Sequence record: PP337211
Reading direction: 5' to 3' (one strand)
DNA from: Escherichia phage ERS-1
DNA: 64,000 nucleotides
Each line of letters begins with the position of its first letter. Position 1 is the first letter of the stretch. The translations under genes were made by a program, and so were the position numbers. This document shows positions 4,571-61,364 of this stretch, piece after piece. Below the pieces are notes generated by a model that was not told where the DNA came from, searched no databases, and worked only from the letters and a program-made list of their open reading frames with translations.

Positions 4571-4596
4571 TCTTCGGCGAGGGTATTTGTATCGCT

Positions 4597-34500: not shown

Positions 34501-34544
34501 TGTGAGTTCTCCAGTTCCGTTGTGGCCGGCACCGTCCCGACCTG

Positions 34545-34580
34545 AAAGAAGTATAGTGGGGGCCTCCGAAGAAGTAAAGC
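34545..34580 (-). promoter_or_regulatory. Sigma70-like promoter of the recurring family (-35 TTTACT 34573-34578, -10 TATACT 34550-34555, 17-bp spacer)
   Basis: rc GGGGCTTTACTTCTTCGGAGGCCCCCACTATACTTCTTTCAG; near-identical to the site at 36953-36990. Confidence 0.6.
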
Positions 34581-34908
34581 CCCGGAGGTCGATCGGTTGA
34601 CGGGCGGTAGGGGTCGGAGTCCTCGCGCGGCGAAGGCCGGACCGCTCCCGCCTCGCCTTGTCGTGGATTGTTCGCCGTCCGCCTCCGCCGTCGGTCCCGG
34701 TCCCGAAGCTGAAGCCCGGGATCGTCGCGCGGAGGACCGCGAGCCGTTGGGCGAGACGTTCGGGCGATCCCCGTTGCGAACTCATCGCCCGGCGGAGTTC
34801 CCCGGCTGGCCTGAAGGATTGGCGAGGGCGTCCGCGGGACCTGGAGGGCTTGATCGCCGGCGCGGTGGCCCTGTTGTCGTTGATTCGTTTCCTGCGAGTC
34901 GGGACGGG

Positions 34909-35616
34909 TCAGGGCGACGGCCCGGGCCTCCCCGAGGGCTCCGGTGAAGGCCCTGCGGTTGAGGACCCCGGTGAGGGGTCCTGGTAGGTGGCGGCGCAGG
35001 CCCCGCCCTCAGCTTGCCGCGGAGGGCTTCGAGGAGGTTTGGGCGCTTCCGGCTGGTTTTTCGGGTTGCCGATCCGCTGGAGGTCGGTCTGGGCCTGGCC
35101 GCGCACTTCCGCGTGCTCCTCGGCGGTGGCCTTGATCTTCGGCTCCTCGCCTTCCTCCGCGTAGAAGGCCCCGGACTTCGAGCAGGCAGGCCCCGGTCGC
35201 GCGGTCGATTGTTGTGACGACGTGGACCGTCTCGATGCCGTAGCCGTTCCTGGCGTCCCGGTGAAGGTGTAGCGGTGGCGGCGGTTGCGTCTGAAGGCGG
35301 CGTGCGCTTCTTCGGCTCGCCCGCTGTTGGGCTTCGGCTTCGGCGGGCGAGTGCGGGACCCGGCGGGCGACCTCCTGGGCGGCTGCGTTTCCCCTTCCTC
35401 GAAGTCCGGGAGGGGCGTCGATGCCCGCTGCCGATGCAGCCCGCGGGGCCTCGTGGAACTCCTTGCCCGCGTAGGGTCCGAAGGCGAACTTGCCGCCCGA
35501 TGGCTGGCGCTTCTCCTCCTCCTCCGCGGCCCGTTCCGCGGCCCTGCGGTCCTCGCGTCTTCCGCTCGCGCTCCCGGCGCTCGGCTCGCGGCGTCGGCGC
35601 GGTGAATCGCGTTCAT
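34909..35616 (-). CDS. Hypothetical protein with RBS-supported ATG; frame broken
   Basis: rc GGAGGAA-ATG (ATG is complement of 35614-35616), N-terminus MNAIHRADAAS; peptides GKFAFGPYAGKEFHEAP, NGYGIETVHVVTTIDRATGACLLEVRG, AFYAEEGEEPKIKATAEEHAEVRGQAQTDLQRIGNPKNQPEA. Confidence 0.35.
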   Translation of the reverse strand: MNAIHRADAASRAPGARAEDARTAGPRNGPRRRRRSASHRAASSPSDPTRARSSTRPRGLHRQRASTPLPDFEEGETQPPRRSPAGSRTRPPKPKPNSGRAEEAHAAFRRNRRHRYTFTGTPGTATASRRSTSSQQSTARPGPACSKSGAFYAEEGEEPKIKATAEEHAEVRGQAQTDLQRIGNPKNQPEAPKPPRSPPRQAEGGACAATYQDPSPGSSTAGPSPEPSGRPGPSP

Positions 35617-35762
35617 TTCCTCCCCGGAGGGAGTCGCGGGAGGTCGTGAGCTTCAGGCCCTTGCGCCTGGTGCTTCCCTGGGCCTTCTCGAAGGCTTCGT
35701 CGGGTCCTGGCCTGGCTCTTGACGTGGTAGCTGCGGACCTCGAAGGAGCCCTGAGGCTGCCT

Positions 35763-36915
35763 TCACCGTTGCGTTGCCCGGGCCGGGACCCGGGACGGCG
35801 TGGGTACGTCTCGCGGAGGGTGAAGAAGCTGTGCTCCCCCGACTCCGATGAAGGGTGGGGACGAAGGTGGAGGGGTTCTGGGTGCGGTTGTCGATGTGGT
35901 AGGCGGTCGAGCTCCTTTCTTGGGTGGGGAGGGCCTGAGCCCTCCCGTTCGATTGGCTGGCCGAACTTCCGGGGGCCCCGCGGCCTCCGCGAGGTCCGAA
36001 GCCGATGGCTCCTGTTGCCGTCGGCGCGGAGGACCTTTGTCGACCTGGCGGATCGCGCGATCGCCGGTGAAGGTCCGGGCGGCGCTGGCCTTGGCTTCGC
36101 GGGTGCCGGGAACTTTTGCGCGGCCCCGACTTCGCCCTGGGAGGTGGTGCCCTGTCGACGGTTCGCGGGCGGCGTGGGTCTGGCGGGAGGATGGTTCGAT
36201 CGGTTCTCCGCTTCTCAGGTTGTTAACGTGAAGAAGCAGACCTGCCGCCGTTTGCCCGAAGAAGTAAAGCCCCTGGTGGCCTCTTTTTCGACCCGCGAGG
36301 AGGGAGGGCCGAGCCTCCCGCTTCGTCTCGCCTTGCCTTCGGCTTCCCGGCCTTCGCCTCCGCGGCGGCGATGATGATAGACGGGGCAGGGTGCCGTTTG
36401 GTAGTAGAAGGCCCGGAGGAAGGTGGTGCCGTGCTGGCTTGTTCGTAGTGGACGTTGGCGTGGACCGGGAGCCCGCCGAAGATGTCGTGGAGGCGGAGGG
36501 CGTTGTTGTACTGCTCCTGCGCTCCTTCCGTCGCGGATGGACTTGGTTGCGGCTTCGACCTTGGCGTTGTCGCTGGCGCGTTCGATCTTCACCCTTGCCA
36601 GCGGCCTTGATAGCGGCGCGGACGGCTCCGAGGGCTTCGATCTGGGCGACGGTCGCGGCGGTCTGCGGGTCGCGGAGGGCGAGGGCGGAGTGCTTGGCCT
36701 TCCGTTGTGGGGTAGTCGGCCAGGTTTGGGCGCGGTCCGACCGCGGTGCGGGCGTCGTGCTGATGTCCGGTACCCTGCCGGCGACGTCGCGCTTCTGGCT
36801 CGAAGGCGCTGTTGAGGTCGCGGAGGGCTTCTCGTCGAGCGGCCTTGGAGGTGAAAGCCGGCCTCGAAGCGGGCGGTGGCGCGGTCGATGTAGAAGGAAG
36901 CGGTGCGGGCCGATG
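35763..36915 (-). CDS. Hypothetical protein; start codon reads ATC after RBS GGGAGAA; frame broken
   Basis: rc peptides FYIDRATARFEAGFHLQG, ALRDPQTAATVAQIEALGAVRAAIKAAGKGE, ARVKIERASDNAKVEAATKSIRDG, TTFLRAFYYQTAPC. Confidence 0.3.
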
Positions 36916-36952
36916 TTCTCCCGTTTCTGTGGTTGCCGTTCTCGTTGAACGT

Positions 36953-36990
36953 GAAGAAAGTATAGTGGGGGCCTCCGAAGAAGTAAAGCC
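36953..36990 (-). promoter_or_regulatory. Sigma70-like promoter of the recurring family (-35 TTTACT 36982-36987, -10 TATACT 36959-36964, 17-bp spacer)
   Basis: rc GGGGGGGCTTTACTTCTTCGGAGGCCCCCACTATACTTTCTTCACG. Confidence 0.6.
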
Positions 36991-39900
36991 CCCCCCGCGC
37001 GGTTCTTTTGATTCGGTGGGCCCGTGGTGGTCCCGAGCTGGCCGGCCCCCTCCCTCCGCTCCTCCGCTCCTTTCGCCCTGTTGGCCCCCGGCTCCCCGGC
37101 GGCATCTTCGCCGCGGCCTCCGCCATCCGGGCGCCTCGCGGTCCGTGTCGTGGAGGATGCGGCCAGTTGCCGAGTCGATTTGCTGCGGGTCCCTTGGGTT
37201 CTCCTTCTGGGTCGCCCCGGAGGACGTTGGGTGCTCGGAGGAGGGATCTGGCGGGGTGGTCTTTCCTGGCCGGCGTGGACGGCTTGCGCGCCTTCCGGCT
37301 TCGACCTGCCCCGCTCCTTCGCCCGTGCGCGGTGCGGGTGTCCCGCGGCGGAGATCCCCGGGATCGGCACGCCCGCCCGGCGATAGTAACCTCGGCAACG
37401 GCGATGTTGGGCTACGGCCCCTGGCCGGGTCGCTTCGCGTCGGGTACCGCCCAACCCTGCGGGCCAGGTCGGTCTGCGCGGAGCGCATTGCCTTCGGCGG
37501 GCGCTTGGGCTGGAGCCGCCCTGGTCCCGCCCGGCAACTGGACCGTGGAGGGTTCCACCCCGCCGCCGGGTAGGCGCCTGGAGGTTGCGTCGCCCTCGAG
37601 GTGTCTGGCTTCGCCGGATCCGGTTCGGCCGTCGAACGGGATCGCCCCGACCTGAATGACCCCGGCGTCGGCCGGTCGCCGCTTCGTTTTCCTGCCGATC
37701 GGCGCTGCCGGTTCGCGTTGTCGTCGTGATCACCTTCCTCCTCTTTGTTTGATCTCGCTTTGAAATCCCGGGGCCTTTGTTGCGGCATCCCGGACCACTC
37801 GCCGCCCTCCGCCTTTTTAGGGGCGGGCCTCCGTCCGGTTGAAGGGGTGAGCGGCGGTGGTCCGCTGGTCCCGGTGTGCGACTCCCAGTCGCGGGAACCG
37901 ATAGGCCCCCGGCGGGGGTTGATGAAGTAGCGTGGGGCGACCGCCTCCGAAGCGGTGCGGAACCGATAGGCCCCTGTGCCCTGCCACTCCCCGCGGCGGG
38001 GTTTCCTCCGGCTCGTCCGCCTCCCGGCGGCGGGCGCTTCGCCTTCCCCTTCTTGACCTTGCGGACGCGGGCCTTGCCGACCGGGCTGTTCGAGAAGGCG
38101 AGGTGGAGGGCGTAGCGCGGTGACCGTCCGCTGGCCGTCGATTGGCTGAGTTCTCCGGCTTTGGGTTCGGAAGAAGTCCGGCTCCTTTGGCTCGCCCGGG
38201 GGGCGGTCGCGTCCGCTCCGGCAACCTGACCATCCTGCAGGGCTGACGCGGCGGCGGGTGAACCTGTGAGCCCAGGGGGGTGAATCTGGATCTTGTGCCC
38301 TGCTGCGCTGGGATCCCTGTGACGTTCTGGAAGGACTGGGCCGTGGTCTGGAAGGACCTTCACCCCCGGGCCGTCTGCCCGTGGAAGGGTGTAGGCCCGG
38401 TGGGCGACTCCGGCCCCAGGTGGTCGCCCGGGAGGTCCGGATGAAGTCCTTTGCCCCGCTTCCCCGTCGTTTGTGGCGGGTTCGGTGGTTTCTCCGGTAG
38501 GGGTTGTTGGTCGAAGCCCGGGGCGGTCCTGTCCCGGGCCCGTGATCGGTCCCGACTCCGGCGGCGGGGCGGCGGGCGTCCGCCTGAACCTGCTCCGCCT
38601 GCCGGCCGCCGCGAACCGGGTTGCCCTTTGGCCTGGCGGGTTGAAACGGAGGTCTTGGCCTCCTGGCGTGGGCGTAGCCGTTCCCTTCTTGGTTTGAAGG
38701 GAACCTCCCGGGATGTACCCGGCCCTCGGTCCCGGTTCTCCTTCAGTTCTGGCCCTCCTCTCGTCGTCCGTTCCTTGCCCGTGCCGCTCCGCTCCTCCCT
38801 GAGGTCGCCGCGAGCCGTCGCCGGTCGGACGCCCGGGCCTTCTGCGCTGTTCCTCACAGCCTCCACCTGCCGACGGAAGGGCGAAGGCGAGAAGGCGGAG
38901 GCCCCCGTGGATCGCCGCGTCGGAAGGTTTGCCGGCGGCCGCTCCGCCTTGGGCTTGTACGTCCCGTGGGGCGCTTGTTCGGGGTCTTGGTTTGGTGCTG
39001 GCCCTCCTTCGGGTGCCGATGAATCTGGTGCCAAGCGGTCCGGGTCGCGCTCCTCGCGGATCGCCTCCCGGTGCCCGCCCTCGATCCGTGCTCCCGTGCC
39101 AAGCCCCTGGCTCGCCCTGGAAGGCGAGCTGGTGCGCTTCCCCGGTCGGCGCCCGCTCCGGGTAGGTGAGCTGGGCGGCAGTCCTTGCCACGTTCTTCCT
39201 GCCCGTGCCCGTCCGTGGAGTTCGCTGAAGTCGCCCGAGGCTTCGACTTGGCAACGGTACGCGGCCCGTCCTCGAAGGCCCCGCGGGCGGTTTGGCGTTG
39301 AATCTCCGCGAAGTGGCGACGGAAGCGGGCCGCGCGGAACTGGAGTTGGTGGGCGACGGACGGGCCGCCGAGGACCTCGTCCGCGGTGTGATGCCCTGCC
39401 CGCTGTCCGTAGTCGCGGACCTCCTCCGGCTTCGCGGAGGGTACGGCGGCGGCGATTGCCTCGAAGGCGACGGCCGGGTAGCCTTGCGCGCTGCCTCCTC
39501 GCCCTTCTTCGGGCGTAGGTTCCGAAGAAGCGATGGCCGGGTTGTTCGTCTTGATCCGTGTTCGTCTCCGTGTCGATCCGGGGTTTGTCGTCGTCCGGCT
39601 TCGGGAGGAGGGCGATGGCGCCCGCTTCGCGGAGTTCCTTCGGTGGAGCGGTCGCGGTCCCGGGATCGCCAGGCCGGTGAGCCAACCGATGAGCCGGCGT
39701 GTCGGTGGCGGCGGGTCGGCTTCCCTGGAGTCTTGGGCAAACACTCCCGGCGCTGGACCCGGTGCACCTGCTCCGAGGCGAGGACGCCCCGGGCGATGAC
39801 CTGAACCCTCCCGTCCGTGAGGGAGGCGTTGCCGGCACTCCTCGGCTGGGTACGGCCGGGCTGCTTCGTCCGTTCGTCCCTGCCGGCCCTCCGTGGAGTT

Positions 39901-42871
39901 CCCCGAGGCGCTGATCTGCCTGCGCCACTTCCCCGTGGCTTCTCTGGCGGTTTGAGGTAGCGAAGGCGGCGCGCTGCTCCTGGTTTTCGTTCTGCTGCCT
40001 TCGCCCGTTGGCTTCGAGGCGCTTCTGCTTCTCCGGTACGTCGCGGCGAGTTCCGCCGAGCGGCCCCTCCCCGAAGGCCCGGACCGCATCCTGGGAGGCC
40101 ACCCGGGTCGATGTTGTCGCCGTACTTCTCCCCCTGGTACTCCGCGGCGGCTCCCGCCGTCCCGATCGGTCTGGAGGAGGCGCTGCTGGCTCGTGGCTGG
40201 CTGGTCGATGTCCGTGGAGGACTTCGCTGGCGGACTGGCGATGCGATCGGACCGTGACCTGGTACTTGCGGGGGTCCTCCGGGTTGCGCCCGAGGCGGGC
40301 CTGGCACGCCTGGATGGTAGTGGTTGTGCTGGTTCTCCTTCGGCGGTGGGGGTTGGCTTTCCGAGGTGGCCGCGGCCCGTAGACGTTCGCTGTCCTGGCC
40401 CTCGAAGAAGCCCCCGGCCTGGAAGGTCGGCCACCGTCCTTCGGCTCCGGCGGCGACCCCCTCCGCGGACTGGTCCGTTGGGGCGGCGTCCGCGGACTCG
40501 AAGCCCCGGCGGTGAAGAAGTGGCCGGAGTCGCTGAGGATGTAGAACTTGTCCGGTTGTCCCAGCGCGCTCCCCGGCTCCGGAGGTTATCGCGTGCTGGA
40601 CTTTCTTCCGCACGGGCTCCGGTCCGTTGCGGCGGCGGTTCACCCCCATCTGGAAGCTTCGCCGGCCCCCGAAGGTCGTTGCTTCTCCGCGACCTGGGCG
40701 AGGGTGATGAAGATGTTTGCGGGTCCTTTGCAGTTCCTGGACCTGGCTCTGGTCCAGTGTCTCGACCGGGACGGCGGCGACCGTGGCGAGGCCAGTGACC
40801 TGCTCCGCCACCTCGCCCGGTCGGCGGCGACTTCCGCCGGGCGCTTCGCCGAAGGCGTCGTCTGCCCTGCGGGTGATCGATTCTTGGGTTTCGTCGCTCG
40901 TTTGGTTCTCCGAGGTTCGGGGTACGGTTGCCCTGGGGTCGGGCGGGATCGTGCCTGTCCTGCCGCTCGAAGCGGGCCGGGTCCGGCTTCGCCCCACCTC
41001 CGCCGGGAGGACCCGGACGGAGGGGCGAGGCGTGGGGAATTGCTGCCGATCTGCGGCTCGCCGGACCGTCTCCTGGCGTTATAGGGGCCGGTCCTCCGGT
41101 GCCGCCTGCGTGGCGAGGTGGGCCAGGGCGAAGATCCTGCGGTTTCGGTCGGGCTCTGCGCTTCGAGGTGGTCGGTGGACTGGAGGAGGTCGCCGGGGAG
41201 GGGCGGGCGTCCTCCGCCTCGCGCTTGCTCCTGGAAGGCGTGCCGTGGGTTGTCGGAACAGCTCGTGTCCTGTCTTCCCCGCCCTGCTCCTCCTTCGGCA
41301 GGTCCGCGGTGTCGGCGGGAGGCTGCCCTGCCCCGGCTCGTTCCGCTCCTGGGCGTCCCGCCCGAGTTCGTTCCTGTCGCTCCTGGAACTCGCGTTCGGC
41401 CCTCGCCTTCTGGGCGTGGGCTTGTTGGTGGATGCCGTGGACGGCCCGGCGGCGGTCGGGCGTCTCCGGTGAGACGGATGGTGGTCTTGCGGCTCAGGCG
41501 GTTCTCCGGTGATCTGTTCGCCCGGAAGGGAGGCGATGGTGTCGGCTTGGTTCTGCGGTGCGGGTTTCAGTCGCACCTGGCCGGTGGCGGAGGTGGATGA
41601 CCCTCAACGGCGTCCGGCCTGTCCGGTCCCCGGAGGTGCGCTTGCTGATGTAGATTTTGCCCGCTGCCCGGCCTGGACCTCCTCGCCCTGAGCCGCCAGG
41701 ATGATCGGGTACTCCTGGACGGCGAAGCCCTGCTGCTTGCAGAAGCCGCGGCCTTCTCCGCCGGTCCGTTCCGCTTGCCGGCGGTTGGGTCGCCTCCTCG
41801 CGGAGCTGGTCCCTTTACCCGGCTGCGAAGCCTTCGGCGCGGAGCGGGGGCGAGGAGTCGAAGCTGCGGGCGAGTTCGGAGACGGTCGCCAGGAAGGGCT
41901 TGGACGGCTCCACGCCCTCGAACTCCGCCTTCGCCGAAGGTCGCCTTGGGCGCGGTGACGGCCTTCTTGACGGGGGAGCCGTTGCGACTTGCAGAAGCCC
42001 GCGACGGGACGGCGGCGCTGATGTCCCCTTACCCTTGATGGCCCGATCTTCCCGTGTTCGGCCTTCTTCTGGATGTTGTAGGTGAACTGCGAGGGGTTGT
42101 CCTGCCGGTAGGCTTGTACGCCCTGGCAGACGAAGTGGGACGGGCCGGGATGGATGTGGACGGCCTCGTGGCGCTCCTGGGTCGCTGGCAGGATGATGTC
42201 GGAGCGGAGGCCGGTGTCCCGGCCCCCGCCCGGGACCCGGTTGCGGTTTCGTCCGCGGCGACTTCCGGGACCTCGCTGGCCTCGAGCCTCGCCCCGTTCG
42301 TCCTTCGTGTTGCAGTGGCTCGCGGAAGGCTTGCCCACTTTTCCCTGCTCCGCCGACCTCCGTGGTGAAGCCCGGACGGCGGTTGTTCGCTTCGCTACCG
42401 TTGAAGTCGGTTGACCGGACGTGATCCCGCTTGATGCCGAACTCCGGCTTGCGCTTCCCGGCGTGAATGGTGATGTCGTGGCCCTCGCGGAGGAGGATGG
42501 CGATGGCGCAACTGAGGCCGGTCCCGAAGAAGCCGATGGCCCCGGGGGTTCTCCTTCCAGCTGACCCCGAAGGTGGTGATGGACTTGGGGTCAAATGATG
42601 CCCTTGTTGCGGAAGATTATCCGTTGTGACTCCTCTTGGGTTGTTGAAGGGACCTTACTCCTCCCCTTGCCGGCGGTCCGGCAGGGCTCTGTCGATCTGG
42701 GGAGCCGTCCGCGTTGCCCCGCCCCTCCGGTTGTAGCTGATATGAACCTCCGGGCGGTCCGGTAGTCTGGAGACCCTGCTGGTGCCCCGGTGGTGACGGC
42801 GAAGGCGCAGCGGAGCCTGCCGGCGTGGTCGTGCCCCGCCGGCGTCCCTTGCAGGCCGAAGGCGATTGACT

Positions 42872-42979
42872 TCAACGAATCGCAACGGCTTTGCCTGGTC
42901 CTCGCGCCGACTTCTTGCGGTTTTGCGCCGCGCGGGATCGGGTGCCCGTGTATGCGGCGGAAGGCTTCTTGTAGTTCAT
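42872..42979 (-). CDS. Small basic protein (35 aa as read; may be truncated by a frameshift)
   Basis: rc AAAGGAGCAGCCCATC-ATG (ATG is complement of 42977-42979): MNYKKPSAAYTGTRSRAAQNRKKSARGPGKAVAIR then stop; ~65 nt downstream of the promoter at 43.05 kb. Confidence 0.3.
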   Translation of the reverse strand: MNYKKPSAAYTGTRSRAAQNRKKSARGPGKAVAIR

Positions 42980-43044
42980 GATGGGCTGCTCCTTTCCAAT
43001 CTTGAATCGCGGGTGCTGGTCTGGGGTTGGTTGTTTGGACTCGT

Positions 43045-43081
43045 GTGAAGAAGTATAGTGGTTGTCCGAAGAAGTAAAGCG
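43045..43081 (-). promoter_or_regulatory. Sigma70-like promoter of the recurring family (-35 TTTACT, -10 TATACT, 15-bp spacer as read)
   Basis: rc CCGCTTTACTTCTTCGGACAACCACTATACTTCTTCACAC. Confidence 0.5.
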
Positions 43082-43599
43082 GTTTGGTGGTTTGGCGCGC
43101 GGCGGATTTCCCGCCGGACCTGAAGGCGGGCGTTGAGGGCCGCGCGGTGGTCGGAGGAAGTCCGCGGCACGTGCACCTGGGGCTCCCCCCTCGGTGAAGC
43201 GGACCTTGCAGCGTCCTGGCCTGCTCCTCCGTGTAGGCCATCCCGCCCCCTCGGCTCCCGCTTCGTCGCTTCCGCGTGTCGCTCGGCGGGGGTGCTCCTC
43301 GGGAACGGCGGCTTGTCCGACTTCGGGCTGTCCTTCTGTAGGCTCCTGGGTCGGTCGACCTTGGGCGAATCGAACGGGCTGCCGGGTCTTGTCCCTGTGC
43401 GCCCGGACCTGCTCCGCGGCGGGAGGTGGGCGCAGGCGCGCTCTCGATCGTGCGCCTCGAAGCCGTTCGTTGGTTGGAATTTCCGCCAGTTTCTGCTCCG
43501 ACTGCGGCCTGCTGTCCGGGAAGGCCCGGTGAGCGCTTGCCGAAGCCGGTGCGGCTGGCGTGGAGTTCGGCCTGGTCGCGGAGGTCGTTGGCGTAGTCG

Positions 43600-46400
43600 T
43601 CCGTGGGTCCTTCACCACCTTGCCGCTCCGCCTGTCCTGGTCGGTCTTGAGGCGGCCCTCCCCTGGCTCCTGGCCTTCCCTTTGGGTTTCCGGTGAGCGC
43701 CGTCACTTCTGGTCCTGCAGGGCGCGGGTCTCGGGGGGACTGGCGAACCTCGAAGGTGCTTGTGCCGGGTGAGGAGGAAGTGGAGGCCTGTGTTGGGCCC
43801 CTGTTGTCCGGTTGTCCTTGATGCGCTTGAAATAGGCGTGGTCCTGCTTGTGGCCCTCGCCCCTTTCGTGACCGAGAACCGGCGCCTTCCGGGCCCCGTA
43901 CCTTCCCGGACCCTTCGTTCGAGGCGAGGACCTGGTGGAGGTGCTTCGGCCGCTTCCCGTCCGCCCTTGCCCTCGATCCCTGGTGTTCGGTCATCAGGGT
44001 CGAACCTGCTTTCGTGCTTCTTGTCTCCGGCGAAGAAAGCCATCACCGAACAGCAGGACTAACCAGATCGCGGAGGTGGGCGTTGAAGGAGCCCACCAGG
44101 CGCTTCGAGTCGCTGACTTGGAGGTAGTGACGCCCAACATCGTGCCCGTGACCTTGGCGAAGAAGGACTTGCCGGTGCCGCGGCGACCGCGGAGGACCAC
44201 GGCCCTCGCCCGGGCCGTCCGGGGTGCTGGACCTCCGCGCCCCTCCCGACAGGTAGCGGCAGTGCTCCGGGTTCCCTGAGCCTGGACGTCGTCGCGGATG
44301 TGGTCGGGAAGGGCGCGCTCTCGCCCGGGAGGGAGTCGCCAACCCGCGCCTGGGTCGTAGGCTTCTTCCACCTCCTGGCCGGGGGTGGTGATGGGCTCGT
44401 GTTGGCGGCGCTGGGCGATCCGTTTGTAGGCTCCCGCGGCCTTCTCGATGGGCTTGCCCTCCTCCAGCGCCCAACCACTTCACCTTGATGTGGCGGTAGC
44501 GGTTGCGGAAGTCCTCGAAGGACTGCTCGCTGATTTGGTCCGCTTCATCGCTGGGTCCCGAACCTCGCTGACGATGCGGCACTTCTTCTGCCGATGTCCG
44601 CGACTGACGGCGTGCTTCTCGTTGAAGCTTGCGCGGCCAGGGTCCACCGCCTCCCCGCGGGCGTTCGATCTGCCGTGGGCGTAGCCTTCCCGTTCGGCTT
44701 GTCTCTGACGCTCGCGGCGATTTCGTCGGAGCCGGTGATCACCGCGAAGACGTTTGGGGACCTCCGCCGCCAGGTTGGTGCCTCCAACCTGGCTTCCCGA
44801 CCGGCAGAGGGGTACTGGTCGGGTCCGTGGGTCCTGCCCGGTGCCCTGCCCTGCGTGGTCGCTGATAGCCTTCCCGCGCCGGCCGGGCTCCGGCTCCTCC
44901 GTCCCGATGTCCGGGACGTTGCCCGTGATCTTGCCTTTGCACGGCCCCCCGGCCTGGCCCTGCTCCGCCTTTGGACTCGAACCGCGGGGGCGAATTGTTC
45001 GATGGGGCAGCTGGCCTCGTCGCTACGAGACGGCGAGGGTCGGCTGGCGACCCTTCTTGACCTTCTTCGCGGTGGGCGTCGATCGTGCCCGGGAGGCGGG
45101 CGATGCGAGCTCCGTTGTGGCGGTCCGCCTGAAGCACCTTCTCCGGCTGGATGTTGTACGCTTCCGCTCTGAGCCTTCGCCGCCGATCCGGCGATGTCCG
45201 CTTGTCGGACGGGTTTGGCTGCCAAGCCCTGCATAGCCCCCGCCCGAGTCGATGATGACCGTGGGCTTGGCGTGTAGGACTGGAGGCTTCGGCGCCGCGC
45301 CCGCTCCTCCTCGAAAGCCTCCCCGGCTCGCGGTCGATGTCCCGTGAAGCCTGGCGAGGCGGGCCAGTTGTCCTCCTTCGAGGCTTTCACGTTTGATTCG
45401 CCGGCGGACCGGGTTGGCGTGGAAGGCGTTGCGCTTGCCCTGATGCCCTTCGATCGCTCTGCGGCCTTCTGCCTGTGGTTGGGCGGAATGCCACCGTCTC
45501 CGTTTTCCCGTCCGGGATGATGGCCGTTGGGTACCACGGCCTCCCGGTCCCTTTCCTCCTTCAAGAAGTCGATCGCGTCCTTGGTCTTGTGTTTTGGTGT
45601 TTTCTGCCCATTTGATCCCCCGGCTGAAGGATATTCCCGAAGGCGCTGGCCGCGCTTTCCCCCGTCCTCCTTTGGATGACCGGAGGCGTGTGCCGGAGGC
45701 GGCGGCGATTTCGCGCTGGCGTTTTGCCCGCCCGGCGGCGGATGGGAACCGGCGTGGGCTTCGGCTCGTCCGAGGTGCTGGCGCGGTCTGATCGTCCGGC
45801 GGCGGTCCGCTTCCCGTCGCAGCGGTCCGGGCGCCTGTCCTTCGCGGCTTCGATCGGTTGAGGCCCTTGCGGCGGCGGTGTAGGCTTTCGCCTTGGTTGG
45901 TGCGGCAGGCCGGGCAGGACTCCTTGGTTCTTGGAAGGCGTGTCCGCTTGTGCGGCCCCTGCCCGTTGTCGTTCCCGCGAACCTGGCCCTGGTGCCGGCT
46001 ACCGTCCTTCCAAATAGACGCCGTCTCGTTCCCCCGACCTTCGGCGAGGAAGGCCCGGCCCCCGGCCTTGCGGCGACGGGCAGCGTGTCCTCGCTGGCGG
46101 TGAAGTGGTCCGCTCAAGCGGTCCGCCCCTGGGCGGCCTGTGTTGGTGAATTTCAATTTGGTTGCTGGTTGTAGTTCACGTCCGGGTCCCGGCAATGGGC
46201 TTCTCCTCGCCGGTCCGGTTGGCGACCGGATGACGGGGCGGAGGGAGTCCGCGTTGCGGCTTTGCTGGTTGCCCTCCTTCCACGTCGTAACGGCGGGCGA
46301 CTTCCGGCCTTTGACGCGCCGATTCCCTTCCTGCCCCCTCCCCCGGATCGCGGCCCGAGTAGTCGATGCCCGGGAAGGCGACCCGCTTCGCCTGCCTTCC
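43600..46400 (-). CDS. Primase-polymerase (PrimPol) / SF3 (D5-like) NTPase replication protein; frame broken; boundaries approximate
   Basis: PrimPol-type motifs KPTVIIDSGGGYAG and AYNIQPEKVLQADRHNGARIARLPGTIDAH (~45150-45270); C-terminal P-loop AVVLRGRRGTGKSFFAKV followed by GRHYLQVSDSKRLVGSFNAHLRDL (~44050-44200). Confidence 0.55.
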
Positions 46401-49611: not shown

Positions 49612-52574
49612 GGGCGCACGGGTTCGGACTTCGGCCCCGCTCTCCCGTCACCGTCTTGCCTCTCCGGACGGCGCGACCGCTTCGTTGCCCGTGCTCCTCC
49701 CGGCGCTGCCCTGGTCGAGGGCGTCCGCGGCCTTTGCTGTCCTCCTCGTCGGGAGAAGGCCCGGGAGGTGCCTGGTCGCCTGTCGCGGCGTTCCGCGGCC
49801 TCCGTGCCCTTCCCCAGTTCGGGTGGTTCGCTCTCGCCGGGGCCGGCAATGTCGCCTGGCGGAACGCTCCGCGCAGTCGTGCCGCTTGGACCGCCTTGAC
49901 AGGTTCGGCGACGGGTGCGGGTGGAAGGAGGCTCGACGCCGTAGCTGCGCTGGGCGATGTTGTACTGACCGTGGTGCGGGACGATGTGGTCCGGTGGACC
50001 GTCCCGGCCTCCCGGGTCGCGGCGATCCGGGCGGAGCGGCGGACGGCGCGGCGGTTGGCTCCTCCGCCTCGCGCTCCTCGTCATGAATCTTGCTTCCCTG
50101 GCTTCCCTTCGTCCGCGTCTCCTCCCTGCCGCGCCGTCGTCATTGCCTGGGCCTCGCGGGCCTCGAAGGCGGCGCGGCGGCGTTGATCCGTTTCCTTCCC
50201 CGGCCGTCTTCCCGTCGGTGGCGGCGACGTTCTCCGCTCGCCCCGGGCGGCGTCGAAGCGGAGGGGTTGGACGCTTGAAAGCCTTGTGGGCCTTGAGGTT
50301 GGGATTGCTCGCGGCGGAAGAAGGGTTGCGGAAGCCGTCGGCGTCCGGCTCGCCGGTGCCCGGCTCCTGGTCGCCTTCCTGCCGGTCCGTGGAGGCTTGA
50401 AGCGGAAGGGCTCCGCGATCCCGGCGGCGTAGGGGTCGGGCGTTCCTTCCCGGGGTGTTGGGTTGGCGGCGAGGTCCGCGAGCGGGCGACCTTGCCCAGT
50501 ACCCTCATCGGCGTGGAAGTTGGCGCTGACTTGGCGGTAGATGCCTTGTTGGCCCGAGGTCCGGCGACGTCGGCGGAGGTAGCTGAAGTGGACCGCGTTG
50601 GCCCCTGTAGGCTCCCCGGGTCCCGTCGTCGGAGCGGTTGGTGCGGTCATGTCCGGCCGACCGTCGTGATCTGGAAGATGGCCTGAAGGTTGGCAGGGGA
50701 GGTCCTTGCCTTGGCGGCCTGGTCCGCGTCCGCGCTCCTGTCCAGGACCTGGCGGTGGTCATCGCGGTTCGCCTTCGGGCGGCGATGATCTTGGGCAGTG
50801 GTCCTCGAAGAAGTGCTGGCGCCCTGCGGAAGCCGTAGGCCCCGTGGAAGGTCCTGCCGTCGTCCAGTAGCTGCGCTTGCGACCGGCGAAGCGGGGCGCG
50901 CATTCCGCGTCATTGCGTCTGCCCAGCATCCAGAGGCTTTCCATCAGGTGGAAGAAGGGGTTGGCGTCCCGTTCTGCCCGGCGCGCTCCGCCGGCGGAGG
51001 CGCCGGTGGCGACGGGTTCCGGGCGTCAAGCGGGGCCGTTGCGCGAGTCGCGGCGGACGCCCTCGAAGGACCTGTCGAGAGGGCCTCCCGGGAGGGCCTG
51101 TTGTACGTTGCGGGCTTTGATGACTTTGTCTGTTAATTTGAAGATGACGTTGCCGGTCCGGCGAAGGACGCGGAAGCGGTTTGCGGGTGGTGCCCCGTTA
51201 AGCCGGCGTTCGGTTCGCGGATCGGGGGCGATAGCCCGGGACGGCGATTTTAACCGCGAAGGGGCGGGCGAACTGCTCCGCCTCGGCCCGGTTTCATTGT
51301 TTCTGACCGTGGTGACGGAGTTCGTGACGGCCTCCGCGGAGGACTTCGCCTTGGACTTCTCCGCGTCCGCTCGTCCCGGGCCTCTTCTAGGTGTCGGTGG
51401 TGGCTGTGGGCGCTTGGCGTGGTGTACCGGCGTTGTACTCGTGGGACTTGGCGATGCGGCGGCGCTCCCCGAGGTCGCGCGTGCGAAGCGTTGGCCCTCG
51501 AACTGGACCTTGACGTCGCCGTGGTCGGCAAGAAGCCGTCCGGCGCCTGCCCTTCCCGCTTGCGGAGCGGTTCCGGGTAGATGTCGTTGTACACGGCGTC
51601 CCCAGGGTGAACTTCTCCGCCTCCCTGGGCTTTTTTCGCGGGCCTCGAAGGCGTGCTGAGGACCCCTTGCCGCTCGCGGATGTAATTGGACCCGGCACCT
51701 GCCCGAACCTGGCCTCCAGTTCGTCGATGCCGCCGGAATGGTCCGGCGGCGAGGTTTCGATCCGGCGAGGGTGGTTGCCTTGCGCCGTGGTGCTCCAGCG
51801 GGTTTCTTGCCTTCGTCGGTGGTGCGCTTGCTCGTCGAACTTGGCGTGTGTTCGATGTCCCGGGCCTCGAACCGCGGCCCCCGCGCGGGCTCCCGAGCTG
51901 CGGCGGTCCGAAGGTTTCGTCGAAGCCCCGGGCGTCCGTGTTGGCTTGGCTTCGGCTCGATCAGTTTCCGCGTTCGTCTGCTCCGGGCGGGGCTTCGCGG
52001 CGAGGTCGTGCCCTGCTGGCGGTCGAGCCCGCGGATCGCCCCGGCAGGGCGTTGGCCGGTTCCGTGACGTCCTGGGCGTCGTGGTAGCGGGTGTGGCGGA
52101 GGTCGGTCACCGTTGCCCGGACGGCCCCCGCCGACCAGCGGTGCTGCTGGAATTTGGCCCTGCGCTTTCGAGGGTCGGAACCCGCGGAACCTTGGGGCTG
52201 CACTTGGCGGGCTCCGCGTCGCGCGCCCGTTCCTCGCGGTCCTCCCGGTACGGCCCGGCAATCTCCGCGATGTAGCGGTGCTTGGTCCGCTGTACCCTCC
52301 TTGGAGGGGTCGGACTCCGCGCGGATCGTGAGGCTCCGGGCGCCGCCTTGTTGCCCGCGGCGGCGTAGTCCTCCGGCGCTTCGCCGCTTCGCGGGCTCGA
52401 GTCCTCCCCTTTGCCGGGTTCCCGGCTCCGCCTTGTCCTGGAGAGCGGAGGGTGTCGGCTGTTGATGTAGCGGGCGATGGTGAGGGCGGGTCTTGTAAGG
52501 TGCGGGTGGTCCGCGTAGGGCTTGCGGATGTTCTCCTGGTCCTGGTCGTCCCGGGTTGGCTTCGCGGCAAGATG

Positions 52575-53245
52575 TTAGGGTACTGCCGCCCTCGCGAACC
52601 GGGTCCGCGGTCCGGGGCCGGGCTTCCCGGCCTTGCGGTCGGTAGACGTCGTGCCGGGCCCTTGAAGGCGGCGATGTCGTCGACGCGTGGGTGGTCGGTT
52701 CGGGGTCCTGGTCGGGCTCTCGATGACGGCCTTGATGTCCTTCGGGGCCGTCTCCCTGTGGATGTCGCGGACCGTCTCGCCGTCCGCCGTGGCCTCTCGC
52801 CGGACCCGGGCGATGGTGCGGTGCTTGTCGGCCTCTGGTTCTCCTCGACGGGCTTCCCGCCGTCGCGCTCCTGGATGTGCTTTGGGCTTCCAGCGGCGTG
52901 TCCTGAAGGCCGGGTTGTTCCGCCGTTCGCCTTCGACCCCTGCGCGTATGTAGATGGGCACTGACACCTCGCGCCCTCCAGCCCTACCGCCTTCACGTCC
53001 GGGCCCCGCCAACCAGCTCCGCGACGGCCTTGGCCGCGGCTTGGGTCTTGATCCGGTCCGGACCGGCGGTGGTCGCTCCGGCGGCGGCGGGGGTAGTCCC
53101 CGATGATGGCGATGCCGCCCGGCGCGTCGCCGGGATCGGCTTGTGGTCCGGGACGATGACGTCGATGACGTGGCCTGCGGATCGCGGTCCTGGCTGCGGG
53201 TGTGGTCTTGCCGGAGCCGTTACTGCCCTGCGTGATGTACTTCAT
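52575..53245 (-). CDS. P-loop NTPase with Walker A in the first 15 residues (ParA- or kinase-like); frame broken
   Basis: rc GGAGAACCCAAG-ATG (ATG is complement of 53243-53245): MKYITQGSNGSGKTT...; later peptides GHVIDVIVPDHKPIPA, ADGETVRDIHRETAPKDIKAVIES. Confidence 0.35.
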
Positions 53246-53556
53246 CTTGGGTTCTCCACCGGTTGAAAACGGCGGAGCCGGAGCCCCGCCTGGTTGCTGT
53301 TGGTTGCGTGATCGGGATGATCTTGCGCTCGCCGCCGTCCTCCTCCGGCGGGTCTGGTTCCACGATCTTCTTGAAGTCGGGCGAGCGGCCTTCGCCGCTC
53401 CGGCTGGTTCCGAACCGGCGGGCTTGCCCTTCGTCCGCTGTCCGCGCGGTGGAGACCTGCCGGTGGGGCGCGTCCCTTGACCTCCTGGAAGGGCTGGCCC
53501 GTCGGTCCGGTGAAGGTTCGGCACGCGCTGGCCGTGGCCGGTCTGCGGTGATCATT

Positions 53557-53955
53557 TCACGCCTTCCAAAGCCAGTGCCGGCTCCGCCGGCTCCGGGCTT
53601 CCCGCGGCGGGTCCAGGCGTCGCGTAGGTCGGTTGCCGTGCTCGTCGCCAGTTCCGGTACCTGGCCGGTGGGCTTCGACCCGGCACGGCTCCGCGATGGT
53701 CTTTTCGGGCTCCGGCCTGGTTCTCCGCGGGCTGTCGGCCAAGGCTTTGGTACGCTCCGGTCCGAACCGCTTTGGAGGCGTTCGATCATTGCCGGGGCCC
53801 GCTGTAGCCCGCCTCCCGAATTTTCGGCGATTGTGGTCGTTGCCGACCGCGGCCTGGTGCTCCAGCGTGTGGCGGATGTCGTCGTGGGTGACGATCCCCG
53901 GGATCTGCGGATTGACCTGAATGGAGGTGTAGATGCCCTGACGGCGCTCGGCCAT
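53557..53955 (-). CDS. Hypothetical protein
   Basis: ATG is complement of 53953-53955: MAERRQGIYTSIQVNPQIPGIVTHDDIRHTLEHQAAVGNDHNRRKFG... Confidence 0.25.
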   Translation of the reverse strand: MAERRQGIYTSIQVNPQIPGIVTHDDIRHTLEHQAAVGNDHNRRKFGRRATAGPGNDRTPPKRFGPERTKALADSPRRTRPEPEKTIAEPCRVEAHRPGTGTGDEHGNRPTRRLDPPREARSRRSRHWLWKA

Positions 53956-54143
53956 TTCGTCAGATGGTCCTGAAGGCTGATGGCCCCGGCAGGCCGTGCC
54001 GTTGTGGTCGTTGCCGGTGTTCTGTGACTTCTGGGCGTAGCTGTAGGGGTTCCGCTTCGGGTGCCCATGGCCCGTGACGGTAGCCGAGACGGCTGGAAAG
54101 AAGATGGTGCCGGGCTCCCGAAGGCTTCCGCCCCCGCCGGGCG

Positions 54144-54680
54144 TTATGGGCGCCGTCCCGGTTGGGAAGGGGTCCGTGAAGCTGGAGAAGTAGCCCGCGG
54201 CGGAGGTCCGGGACTTCGAGAGGGTTTGCGGACCTGCTCGCCGGAGTTCGCCGGGACGCCGATGAGGCCGGTGCCGCGGTAGCCCCGGAACCCGCTGTCG
54301 ACGTAGCAGGCGCGTGCCGCCTGTAGCCCTGGAGGTTCGTTGATCGCCTCGCTGAAGGGGCGGGCGCGGGAGCCTCGCTCGTCGTTGCGCTTGTCCTGGT
54401 ACCTGCCCTGAAGGGGCTTGGCGTTCGGGATGCGGATGTGCGGGAGGTAGGTGACGTCGTTTGAAGCGGCAGGCCCTCCACCTCCTTCTTGTCGTCGTCC
54501 TTCGCGTCGCGGACCTTCCCCTCTGCCCTTGCCGGAACTTCGCGCGGCTGGTCCTGTGGGTTTCCTTCTCCCCCATCGGGTCCTGGAACTCCCGTTGGTT
54601 CGGTCCGGCGGGCGAAGACTTGTAAGCCTCCTGCAGCGGCTTCGCCGGTTCTTCTGTCCTTGCCGCGTGGTCGGTGCCAT
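54144..54680 (-). CDS. dUTPase / dCTP-deaminase-fold protein (tentative); frame broken near the N-terminus
   Basis: rc GAAGGAGA-ATG (ATG is complement of 54678-54680); peptide [71 protein letters not shown], resembling the RSS...(I/V)D(S/P)G(F/Y)RG core of the dUTPase superfamily. Confidence 0.35.
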
Positions 54681-54704
54681 TCTCCTTCAACTGTGAAAGT
54701 CAGC

Positions 54705-54738
54705 GCCTTACCCGGAAGAAGTAAAGCGGCGTTAATTC
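54705..54738 (-). promoter_or_regulatory. Weak member of the promoter family (-35 TTTACT intact, -10 degenerate)
   Basis: rc CGCCGCTTTACTTCTTCCGGGTAAGGCGCTGACTTTCACAG directly upstream of the RBS at 54681-54688. Confidence 0.3.
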
Positions 54739-57049
54739 GGCCCGGCTCGCCCGTCGCTTCCGGGCGGCTCCCCTGGCCTTCGTCTCCTCCGAACGCCGGC
54801 GACCGGCGAACTGCCCGGAACCGTGCGGCGACCCTTCCGCGTCGGGTCGTCTGGTTGTCCTTTTGGGACCCGAGGGTGAACGCTTGGGGTTGACGGTGGC
54901 GGTCGGTCGCTGTGAACCTGGCGTCACCGCTGTCGGGGATCGGCAATTGTTCGAAGGGCTCGAGGATAGCCGATTCCTGCCGCTTGTAGTCGATGTTGGC
55001 GTGTACCGTGCTGAAGTACCTGGAGCAGGTCGGGTCCTGTGCTCCCGTCTCCGGGTCCTCCTTACAGCGGGCGTTTAGGTGAGCCGGTCCGTCACGGTTA
55101 CCGATGTTCGGGCGATGGGGCGTGGATGGACGGAAGCCTGTCGAGCGGGTCGCTGCGTTTCGGCTTTTGGGACGGTAACGGGTTGGGGAACGGGGCGGAG
55201 GCGTCCCGGGCCGCGTCCGCGTACCCGTAGCCCTCGTCCGGATGGGTCGATCCGGTTGCCCGGTCCGGCCCGCGGCCTTCTCGATGTACTCCCGGCTGGC
55301 GTCCTGGCTCCGCAGATCCGCTTGTGGAGGATGACGTCGTAGTTGCGGAGGCTCGCCTCCTCCAAGCCCTCGAGTGCCCGGCGGCGACCGTCCCCCGAGC
55401 CGACACCGATGACCGGGTCCCGGCAGTCCGGGAGGTGCGGGGCGGTGCGGACGGCCTCCGCGGCGTTCTCCGTGATCGACTCCGGGAGCTTGGGGCGTTG
55501 GCTGTAGCTGTCGTGGTAGTTCTCCTGGTGCTCTGGCCGGACGGGCGATCGCGGAGCGGCCCGCCGGGATGTCCAGGTCCGCCCCGAGCTGGCGAGCGTG
55601 CTGCTGTTGGACGCGCGGGCGTCCGCGGCCCCGTCGCGCTTGAAGCGGGGCCCGTAGTTCGCTTGCACCCGTTCCCCAGCTGCTGGCGTAGGCGACCGCC
55701 CTGCCCGCCTTCGAGCGGCACGTGTCCGGCTGCCGATGGTGGTTCTTCTGCTGGTCTCGATATGGGCGAGGCCCCGTGAATCTCGCTGAAGGACGGACCC
55801 GGAGCGCCCTGCTCTCCCGCTTCAGGATCGGCACCCCGTCAGCTGGTGTTCGACCGGGGCGTCGTTGACGATTGTTGCTGCTCTTGGGCGTGGTCGAGGA
55901 AGGCCCGTGCGGCGGAGGCGGCCTGCCTCGGTCGAGCCCGCCGTCGATTTCCCGGATGTCGTTCCGGGTGGGAGCTGGCCCTTCGCGGGATTTTCCGGTT
56001 TGCCGCCGCACCGTCTCCACCTTCTGGATGTTCGGCGGGCGGTTGCCGGGTGGGGCGAGGTCCGCGAACTGCCGGTTTGTAAGTCCGCGACCCTGGGCGA
56101 TCGCCTCGCGCTTGGGCTTCGCGTTCTCCGGGTACTCGTGAGCCTCGCGCCGCTCCGCCGTCGCGGCCTTCTCCGGTCCTTGAAGCGAAGACGGCGGCGT
56201 TGTCCGAGTCCGCCGGCATCTCGACCGGTTCCGGCTTGTCGCGATCTTGAAGCTGATCGGGACTGAAGCCGTTGTGCTCCTGGGCGCGGGCGGAGACGGT
56301 GCGGAAGGGGCGCTCCTCCTCCGTCGCCCGGGCTCCCCGGTGGGTGCCCCGCCTCCCGGGCGGTCGCCGAGCGGGCCTGGAGGGAGGTCCCGCAGTCGGC
56401 GGTGCGACCCTGGCCTGTAGCGGCGGCGCTCGCGTCCCCGGAGGCCTGTGACCCCCGGCGGGCGTCTCCTCCTCGTGGTGGGCCGCGACGTCCCTTTGCG
56501 GAACCTCGCCCTCCTTCTCCAGGAAGGAGGCGACCCCGGCGTGGAGTAGCTCCAGGTTGAGGCTAGCCTGTGGGCGGGTGGAGAAGTCCCCCGCCTGCCC
56601 GCGCCGAACCAGGGCCGTGCACACGGGGTCGGATCGCGGTGGTGATCCGGTGTCGGCCGGGAACGTCTCGATGTCCGGTTGGGGCAAGTTTCTGCCGTGT
56701 CTTTTCTCTGGTATGCGTGACCGATTTTCCCGCTCGTGTCCTTGCACATGTCCGGTTGGGTAATTGGCGACTGAAGGAAGGCTCCGTGCGGACTTCTTCG
56801 TTGACGTGAATACGGGATGGACCGTCTGCCCTTGCCGTCGCCGTCCTCCGTGATCCGGGTGAATCCCGCAGGTAGCTTGAGGGCTCCCTTCTGTATCCCC
56901 GCTCCGCCGGGCACCTCCGGCGGAGGGTAGCCGCGTGCGCTCCGAGGCTCCCAGTGGCCTTGCCCTGCTTGGGCTGGCGGGCTACCGGCGGGCGTCCTGC
57001 CTTCGGCGGACTTCTGCGGCTCGTGGGCCGGGATCGCGTGGCCTTCCGG

Positions 57050-57690
57050 GACCTCACGTGGAACCGCTTGTGCCGTCCGCGGCGAAGGCGGAGCGGCACC
57101 CGCAGCCCTTCCGCTTCATGTCCTGCTGAAGCCGGAGGGCGTGGCTCGGTCCGGGCTTGTTGCTGCCCGGGCTTCGACCTGTTCCTGCCTTGGTCGTCCG
57201 TTTCGGGGCGGGATCCTGTATGTCGGGAGACGCCCGCTCCAGCCCTCGCGGCGGGGATCGGGGCGTGGCCCGGGCGGCCGTGTCGGCGCCGCGCGGGGCG
57301 CGGGCCTTCTTCTCCTCCGCGGACTTCGGAGCCTTCTGGGCCTTCGGAGGCGACGGGGCGGGGGTTGCGGTTTGTTTGCGGTTTCGACCTTCTGGGTTCG
57401 GCCTGCTCTGCCGCTCAAACTTCCGGGTGCGCTTCGGCATAACGCGCCAGGCATCTTCTGGTGTGGGGCAATGGCGGTGGTCTTGTTGGCGAAGCGGCGC
57501 ACGTTCGGACGGACTTGCCGTTGCGGAAGGTGCCGATGACTTCGTCGGACCTGCTCGACCAGGGCTGGGCCGGAGGGCTCGCTGGGAGGCTTCGGTGTAG
57601 GCGACGTTGTCGAAGTTGATGGTGTTGGCGGTAGGCTCCTTTTCTGGGGTTGAGGTGCGATCTTGTTCGACCGTGAGAGAATCTTAACCC
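57050..57690 (-). CDS. Hypothetical small protein(s) downstream of RNR copy 2; frame broken
   Basis: rc peptides [69 protein letters not shown]...EEKKARAP. Confidence 0.25.
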
Positions 57691-57712
57691 TGGCCCCCGA
57701 AGAAGTAAAGTG
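57678..57712 (-). promoter_or_regulatory. Sigma70-like promoter of the recurring family (-35 TTTACT 57704-57709, 17-bp spacer, -10 TAAGAT 57681-57686)
   Basis: rc CACTTTACTTCTTCGGGGGCCAGGGTTAAGATTCTC. Confidence 0.45.
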
Positions 57713-58201
57713 GTTTGACTAACTTTTTCAGGTTCTCGGTCCGAAGGCCGGGTGCCCGTTGGACGGCGGAGGGCGAACCGTTGAGGCCTTCTTCCCTGAA
57801 GGCCCGGGCGGCGTCCCTCGTGCCCTGGTTCTCCTGTACCGGCTGGTTGCGCCCCGAGGTGTGCGGTACCCTGGCGACCTCGAAGCCCTGCGACGTCCTG
57901 GCAAACCCTTGCCGGTGGAAGTCCTGGCGCTGGGCCGGATAGCCGAAAGCCTCTGCGACGTCTCCGCCGGGTCAGGAGGATGACGTGCCGACCGCCGGTG
58001 GTGGGCCTCCACCGCGGCCGCGGGCACCCCGCGTCCCGGGCGGGCCGCTTGTCGTCCCGCTTCCGGCGCCCCGGGAAGGTGTGGAGGGTGTCGGCGCGGT
58101 CGAAGGTCTTGAGGTAGTCCTTGGCGATAGGCCCGCCTGCTTCGCCCTACGCCCTCCCGCGGAGGACCGCGGAGGGGAGCCAGGGGCCGGTCGGGTCCGT
58201 G

Positions 58202-60130: not shown

Positions 60131-60139
60131 GTTGAGGGC

Positions 60140-61306: not shown

Positions 61307-61334
61307 TGACCGTTCTCCGTTTCTGATGAAAAGA

Positions 61335-61355: not shown

Positions 61356-61364
61356 CTGAAGGTA

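Follow-up and report, generated by a model that had tools for sequence, protein, structure and literature searches.

The 64,000-nucleotide stretch of record PP337211 (Escherichia phage ERS-1), here called the window, raises the question of what lies between its positions 37000 and 43000. A first-pass annotation described this region as protein-like fragments of no recognisable family and as the place to look for anything uncharacterised. The best explanation, with a probability of about 0.88, is that the window is a raw-quality, single-strand long read covering more than one unit of a Yuavirus genome. The region is then the early-gene block of that phage, with miscalls at TG dinucleotides that probably originate from a hypermodified thymidine. 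As a candidate for novelty, the region is a false lead: the seemingly unclassifiable fragments are known Yuavirus early genes.

Homology of the region to Yuavirus early genes

Window positions 36000-43999 served as the blastn query against 50,697 phage records. Collinear full-length matches were obtained with 72 phage records at a top identity of about 81%. At least 80% of the query is covered by 49 records, and FBPa53, Pa-S, PaSz-9 and others cover 100% at 81% identity. The matched phages are the Pseudomonas Yuavirus FBPa53, Pa-S, PaSz-9, Clover, AN14/M6, LKO4 and Lydia, members of a genus placed in the Mesyanzhinovviridae, Rabinowitzvirinae. Relatives on Bordetella, Sphaerotilus phage SN1 and Stenotrophomonas phages were matched as well. 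The remainder of the window shows the same homology behaviour. The bounds 37000 and 43000 turned out to be arbitrary, with the same state found across the whole window.

A gene lift-over placed 18 annotated coding sequences of FBPa53 (locus L001) at window positions 35953-43286. All 18 follow the reference order, and 15 are located within 37000-43000, all on the minus strand. The reference proteins were also searched by tblastn against window positions 35000-45000. Seventeen of the 18 were matched, with E values from 1.6e-5 down to 1e-48 and with matches often divided among two or three frames; a protein of 54 amino acids (aa) gave no match in this range. That the fragments are not due to chance is borne out by the tblastn matches: they are remnants of genuine coding sequence. 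A primase is encoded upstream of the block, at 43303-45597.

The window shares gene order, gene number, strand and nucleotide sequence with FBPa53 (PP813866.1, record positions 54290-60570). Equivalents of the block are AN14_29-44 in M6/AN14, gp32-gp49 in LKO4 and PaL_00016-31 in Lydia. Indels longer than 14 nucleotides (nt) relative to FBPa53 were looked for in the region and none was present; outside of TG neighbourhoods, the difference is 7.8%. Intact open reading frames (ORFs) are the one defining feature of the Yuavirus early blocks that the window lacks. Every ORF is interrupted and T-depleted, which is ascribed to read error. Homology, synteny and linkage to a hypermodification gene cluster place the stretch in the Yuavirus early region. 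The flagged fragments do not form a new family; they are what is left of 15 early genes conserved among Yuavirus phages (M6/YuA/FBPa53-like). The fragments of 37000-43000 were also compared with capsid, portal and terminase, which would have made them ordinary structural genes, and no such homology was present; the region maps to early genes. Structural genes are located elsewhere: tail, tape-measure and capsid genes within window positions 1-25000, and a match to the LKO4 terminase near 30000.

The minus strand contains both peptides quoted in the first-pass annotation, one at 39292-39480 and the other, in a different frame, at 39515-39619. Their position side by side in different frames is as expected from a frameshifted gene. 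The first belongs to a 98-aa protein (phrog_8020). The second is a chimera: it joins the C-terminus of the 109-aa protein encoded upstream (phrog_13330), whose TGA was miscalled and read through, to the N-terminal part of the 98-aa gene. The Q/N/E-rich segment at 39.9-40.1 kb, taken as N-terminal in the first-pass annotation, lies at the C-terminal end of a 158-aa protein (phrog_7569), in its coiled-coil part.

All 18 reference proteins fall into existing PHROG families (E values from 1e-7 to 1e-238), and the DNA is collinear with dozens of Yuavirus genomes. Hence the families are recognisable; what stands of the initial impression is that most have no assigned function, which applies to 12 of the 15 proteins of 37000-43000. 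PHROG names only three proteins, as DksA-like zinc finger, exonuclease and, weakly, pyrophosphatase (203 aa); the others are listed as 'unknown function'. In searches with the reference proteins, Pfam matched only the 190-aa exonuclease, NCBIfam had no match, and PDB sequences gave only MazG-like matches.

The shortage of functional annotation would suit a new, uncharacterised system with proteins too divergent to be recognised, as would a 392-aa family with more than 3000 members, no Pfam model and an unusual predicted two-part fold. This reading has next to no probability. Every protein has its place in an existing PHROG family and in phage genomes already deposited and annotated, the window version differs from its relatives by nothing beyond read error, and the strangeness is gone once reference proteins are used. 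The content of the region is already known, and nothing in the window version is new in comparison with deposited genomes. Its fragmentation is a sequencing and base-calling artefact over known genes, and the expectation of an uncharacterised system was misplaced. The frameshift-aware analysis suggested for the region was what was needed, and it resolved the fragments into the lifted genes. Overall, the initial interpretation is partly supported.

Read errors and the doubled segment

A segment of 5.7 kb was read twice, at 4-5668 and at 58296-64000. The copies are 84.6% identical, with 436 gap columns in their alignment. So large a divergence between two passes over one genome leaves read error as the only source. 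The repeat period is about 58.3 kb in read coordinates and about 61.5 kb after correction for a net deletion of 5%, determined against SN1. The corrected unit has the size of a Yuavirus genome, and the window contains no host flank. Doubling of the segment also means that the molecule was longer than one genome unit, as in a concatemer, in terminally redundant or circularly permuted DNA or in a circular read-through.

Away from TG, the two copies disagree at 11.6% of positions, corresponding to a random error of about 6% per pass. Most of the 7.8% by which the window departs from FBPa53 outside of TG is therefore attributable to read error, and the sequenced phage is very close to known ones.

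The alignment of 37000-43000 to FBPa53 has 214 indel events, 170 deletions and 44 insertions. Frames are shifted by 176 of these, one per ~34 nt, and each of the 18 lifted genes has between 4 and 25 frame-shifting indels. Among these genes (35953-43286), one start codon and two stop codons survived. In 8 kb, 106 bases were inserted versus 606 deleted. Runs of C are shortened in 3.9% of cases at length 1 and in 28-36% at lengths 4-5; for A, shortening rises with homopolymer length from 6.5% to 37-75%, and G runs show little trend. An excess of deletions over insertions, homopolymer compression and systematic context errors are the profile of nanopore reads. The platform was thus probably nanopore.

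Frameshifts and composition could also be biological, as in a genuinely decayed phage remnant, for instance a dead prophage under strand-biased T-to-C mutation. All genes are broken, the composition is strongly skewed, and ORFs alone cannot separate decay from sequencing error. Even so, decay is very improbable. The 5.7-kb copies are part of one molecule and differ by 15%, mostly in indels of 1-4 nt, yet they share TG-specific changes. The errors scale with homopolymer length, away from TG the divergence from FBPa53 amounts to roughly the read's random error, and more than one unit of a ~61.5-kb genome is present without host flank. So heavy a loss would also not spare a perfect collinearity without larger indels. 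Read error remains the preferred explanation for the broken genes, and its systematic component is centred on TG.

Errors at TG and a probable thymidine hypermodification

Context statistics were obtained from 37 kb of the window (1-25378 and 35393-44954) aligned to SN1 (locus L004) and FBPa53 (locus L001). The sense strand is the sequenced strand and corresponds to the minus strand of the window. On this strand, the retained fraction was 57.8% for T, 79.7% for A, 90.0% for C and 82.0% for G. The loss of T depends on the following base: 82% of 2110 sites before G were lost, as opposed to 14% at TC, 26% at TA and 33% at TT. For 37000-43000 alone, T loss was 89% at TG (n=377) versus 13% at TC, and the T count dropped from 964 to 569, a loss of 41%. 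Only 12% of TG were read correctly. Outcomes were CG (18%), deletion of both bases (12%), AG (11%), deletion of the T (10%) and GG (8%). Within 2 nt of a TG, the difference rate is 42-44%, compared with 8-12% elsewhere.

The errors are reproducible between the copies of the doubled segment. At 73% of its TG sites both copies are wrong, with an identical wrong call at 58%, while only 9% of the sites are correct in both. On the opposite strand, the A of the corresponding CA is retained in both copies at 86% of sites. An excess of CA-to-CG changes was considered as an effect on the opposite strand and rejected: with ~362 changes from CA to CG and ~298 from CG to CA, the two directions are almost balanced, and the equivalent A-to-G and G-to-A changes number 189 and 209 on the closer reference.

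The phages related to the window are known for a hypermodification of thymidine that takes place after replication. In M6, a nucleoside of 271 Da, 5-(2-aminoethyl)-2'-deoxyuridine (5-NedU), replaces ~30% of T according to liquid chromatography coupled to mass spectrometry (LC-MS), and the sequence motif was stated to be unknown in 2018 (Lee et al. 2018, PMC5889632; see also Lee et al. 2021, PMC8989533). Restriction-resistant sites implicate TG or TC ('TS'), and an unpublished remark of the authors states that the purified M6 5-hydroxymethyldeoxyuridine (5hmdU) DNA kinase modifies TG (Flodman et al. 2019, PMC6449724).

Of the T in the reference genomes, 35% are in TG, and with the observed loss (0.82 x 35%) 29% of T are affected, next to ~30% in M6. 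The window belongs to the same genus and contains homologues of the pathway genes. A modification cluster at 50128-54672 on the minus strand has matches of 77-85% identity to LKO4 genes identified by Pfam:

50128-51127, minus strand: ThyA-like dUMP hydroxymethylase homologue, match to LKO4 gene
51761-52696, minus strand: 5hmdU DNA kinase helical domain (HMUDK_hel), match to LKO4 gene
52718-53245, minus strand: 5hmdU DNA kinase P-loop domain (HMUDK_HMUD1), match to LKO4 gene
53305-54672, minus strand: radical-SAM enzyme, match to LKO4 gene

Gene gp18 of LKO4 (Nmad5), located between the ThyA-like and the kinase genes, matches the window over only 122 nt. A different modification cluster was considered on the basis of this partial match and rejected; the allele of the window is common to MP1412, Clover, S218 and PaSz-9.

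A hypermodified base at TG on the translocating strand probably derails base-calling. An effect on the T of the read strand alone would explain the strand asymmetry. Whereas the published context of M6 is TG or TC, the window is affected at TG only, with TC at background (13-14%). The pattern suggests that TG, and not TC, is the context of an M6-type hypermodification at ~80-90% of sites on a single molecule. Unlike the nucleoside work on M6, base-call errors do not reveal the chemistry of the base. A related use of nanopore data is the mapping of preQ0 deazaguanine motifs in phage CAjan (Kot et al. 2020, PMC7544227). There, a modified base in a fixed short motif likewise reportedly leads to a reproducible, strand-specific disturbance of native nanopore reads. 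The CAjan mapping reportedly works at signal level against controls; here, the evidence is the base-called sequence of one molecule, in which the disturbance destroys gene calling.

Without any hypermodification, the TG errors of a noisy long read could arise from a generic bias of base-caller or chemistry, or from an in-silico error model. Nanopore base-callers do have context-dependent systematic errors, and the outcomes at TG are heterogeneous. This origin is unlikely. An error of 82-89% at TG versus 13-14% at TC is far above the usual context bias on unmodified DNA. The genus carries experimentally determined T hypermodification with TG implicated, the affected fraction of T agrees with the measured one, and the modification genes are present in the window.

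Several points weigh against a hypermodified nanopore read. The platform is deduced from the error profile alone, and a deliberately simulated error process is conceivable. A 50-mer taken from the window had no exact match in collections of viral, genome and metagenome contigs. Effects of k-mers on the base-caller may hide a TC modification or exaggerate the one at TG. Miscalls to T are very rare (0.5-0.9%; 61 from A, 105 from C and 62 from G in 37 kb) beside an A-G confusion of 7-10% in both directions, a pattern for which a hypermodified read does not account. A base-caller that rarely recognises any T-like signal in this DNA is one possibility for the few miscalls to T.

If the window is a read of hypermodified DNA, about 30% of the thymidines would have been converted after replication to 5-(2-aminoethyl)deoxyuridine. 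On the sequenced strand, the T of TG would nearly always be miscalled as C, A or G, or be deleted along with its neighbours. Some 6% of random errors and the homopolymer compressions would add to these losses. Starts and stops would be erased, a frameshift would be introduced every ~34 nt, and T would decrease to 10%. Each frame of the minus strand would then turn into a long pseudo-ORF rich in R, P, G and A, with short in-frame islands of real protein, and these islands would be the fragments that had been noticed.

The consequences for gene calling are visible in the lifted genes. TGA ends 17 of the 18. TG is part of TGA and of every bacterial start codon (ATG, GTG, TTG), and its loss removes all but one of the 18 starts and all but two of the 18 stops from the read. 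It also accounts for one giant ORF that is spurious, for the lack of real ORFs, for the depletion of T, for the inflated G+C content and for a background of R, P, A and G in the translations. This background had been recognised before. It is real; however, it is not simply driven by G+C, being the out-of-frame reading of a strand that lacks 41% of its T.

The G+C content of the 64 kb is 68%, compared with 64.3% reported for Sphaerotilus phage SN1 (PMC9476957). The plus strand has 10.4% A and 21.2% T, an extreme and uniform asymmetry. The AT skew is between -0.23 and -0.43 in each 2-kb bin of all 64 kb, and its sign never flips. A skew of constant sign over 64 kb indicates one strand of one molecule, or reads of the same strand, throughout. 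The minus strand is poor in T (~10%), hence its three frames have few stops: 118-150 per 21,333 codons, versus 412-439 on the plus strand. The longest ORF that overlaps the flagged region is a product of TGA-stop loss and T depletion:

35763-40997, minus strand: spurious 1744-aa ORF, rich in R/P/G/A/T/S

It was rejected as a gene, its translation being R/P/G/A junk in a strand with three stop-poor frames. A frame plot of G+C at third codon positions (GC3) over 33-46 kb showed no periodicity, which is abnormal for coding DNA of such G+C content and makes ORF-based gene finding useless here. Scans of the window found no tRNA and no Rfam family. The whole window is best treated as an uncorrected read, and its ORFs, composition and skews are not suited for biological interpretation.

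A wider implication concerns annotation. Native long reads of hypermodified phage DNA may lose nearly all starts and TGA stops if the motif is TG. Gene calling and searches at the protein level then break down even for a well-known phage, which is a general hazard. Mapping the errors to TG is a by-product of modest weight, though the most useful one of the window, and independently supports a TG over a TC context at near-complete occupancy. If true, the TG-only reading sharpens the published inference of TG or TC, with a very high occupancy that includes nearly all sense-strand starts and TGA stops. The odds appear even that the window represents a single-molecule footprint of thymidine hypermodification, essentially at TG only and not at TC, with no more than 9-18% of TG sites called correctly, on one strand and over the whole unit of more than 58 kb, and that, separately, the 392-aa protein represents an uncharacterised family of more than 3000 members.

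The genes behind the fragments

The 15 gene remnants of 37000-43000 and a promoter just downstream of the block are:

36959-36987, minus strand: sigma-70-like promoter TTTACT-17-TATACT, in a hairpin-containing intergenic element; second copy at 34550-34578
37013-37191, minus strand: remnant of a 63-aa DksA-like zinc-finger protein, 4 frame-shifting indels (FBPa53 L001 1704-1895; phrog_54, E 1.6e-7; annotation of LKO4 gp49)
37184-37733, minus strand: remnant of a 190-aa 3'-5' exonuclease, 16 frame-shifting indels (Pfam PF16473 Rv2179c-like, E 2.5e-29; phrog_255, E 1e-55)
37735-38016, minus strand: remnant of a 93-aa Cys-rich hypothetical protein (lift-over; phrog_5016; tblastn)
38013-38619, minus strand: remnant of a 205-aa protein (lift-over; phrog_4301)
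38606-38745, minus strand: remnant of a 54-aa hypothetical protein (lift-over; phrog_17285)
38743-38993, minus strand: remnant of an 89-aa hypothetical protein (lift-over; phrog_9190; tblastn)
38998-39262, minus strand: remnant of a 95-aa hypothetical protein (lift-over; phrog_9341; tblastn)
39265-39558, minus strand: remnant of a 98-aa protein, predicted all-helical (lift-over; phrog_8020; tblastn)
39577-39880, minus strand: remnant of a 109-aa hypothetical protein (lift-over; phrog_13330)
39877-40327, minus strand: remnant of a 158-aa protein with C-terminal coiled coil (lift-over; phrog_7569; weak coiled-coil Pfam hints only)
40324-40901, minus strand: remnant of a 203-aa MazG-like nucleotide pyrophosphohydrolase (lift-over; phrog_9147; phrog_3301 pyrophosphatase)
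40898-41146, minus strand: remnant of an 89-aa protein, N-terminus signal-peptide-like by eye (lift-over; phrog_8938; reference starts MKPLLIFALALLPLATQA)
41157-41496, minus strand: remnant of a 113-aa hypothetical protein (lift-over; phrog_9297; tblastn)
41494-42622, minus strand: remnant of a 392-aa protein, 25 frame-shifting indels (lift-over; phrog_8203; reference P0001, L001 6402-7580)
42655-42979, minus strand: remnant of a 121-aa protein with hydrophobic segment (lift-over; phrog_14626)

The block likely comprises early genes for host takeover and for the nucleotide pool (exonuclease, MazG-like pyrophosphatase and small ORFans), as suggested by its position and by analogy with other phages. 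The 203-aa reference protein matched MazZ (PDB 7ody, E 2.5e-6) as well as YpjD and DCTPP1, and it is annotated as MazG-like in Lydia, AN14 and LKO4; Pfam gave no match at E 0.01. By these PDB matches, it appears similar to the core of the all-alpha MazG/dCTPase fold. For the 205-aa protein, the depositors of Lydia and AN14 use the label T7 gp0.7-like or Ser-Thr protein kinase. This label was not reproduced here: Pfam, NCBIfam and PDB sequences yielded no match.

The 392-aa protein has 3065 homologues, none with a Pfam domain. Its AlphaFold2 (AF2) model is confident, with a predicted local distance difference test (pLDDT) score of 89.5. Foldseek against the PDB revealed a weak similarity of the N-terminal part to the Hsp90/MutL/GyrB-type (GHKL) fold (Hsp90, E 3e-4) and of the C-terminal part to a minigluzincin, selecase (probability 0.98, E 0.03). 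Among viral models (BFVD), phage proteins of uncharacterised type were the best matches (E 6e-21), and RIIA and IrrE/SprT/M48-like peptidase domains were weaker. Invariant residues of the family include E101, N105 and D108 (ExxxNxxD) as well as E356, E357, H360 and D367 (EExxH...D). The model suggests a GHKL/RIIA-like N-terminal part and a zincin-like (minigluzincin/IrrE/SprT-like) C-terminal part. The predicted fold is compatible with, and no proof of, the label 'hydrolase, metallopeptidase' given by the depositors of AN14.

The 98-aa gene is the best preserved of the region, with 93% nucleotide identity. The FBPa53 protein was found by tblastn at window positions 39555-39268 (E 8e-36, 70% identity). 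The family is small: only 20 related clusters were present among 5.8 billion proteins, and the named ones are limited to Pseudomonas phage PAE1 and Bordetella phage LK3. Variant P0122, the nearest one in public data, has the spelling 'GHHTADEV' of the first peptide quoted in the first-pass annotation. The AF2 model (pLDDT 83) predicts six helices in a bundle-like arrangement, and a fold search of the PDB with this model gave no match. The 121-aa gene is the sole gene of the 18 that retained both ATG and stop (TAA).

The promoter at 36959-36987 is part of a 44-bp repeat on the minus strand, present at 36949-36992 and 34540-34583 with 93% identity between the copies. The repeat contains a G+C-rich hairpin and the promoter. 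Two promoters of the TTTACT-17-TATACT type were found, compared with 0.2 expected from shuffled sequences, and the annotation of LKO4 shows a terminator and a promoter feature that overlap at the position corresponding to the 36949-36992 copy. The block is probably transcribed from sigma-70-like promoters such as these two minus-strand copies.

One difference in gene content separates the window from some relatives. A 684-bp gene annotated as 'all-alpha NTP pyrophosphatase-like' is present in AN14 (AN14_41; locus L002, 3572-4255) and LKO4 (gp45; locus L005, 7301-7984), where it is located between the 93-aa and 205-aa genes, the region of window position 38013. It is absent from the window and from FBPa53. 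The genus is known to be polymorphic for the presence of this gene, which some other Yuaviruses also have.

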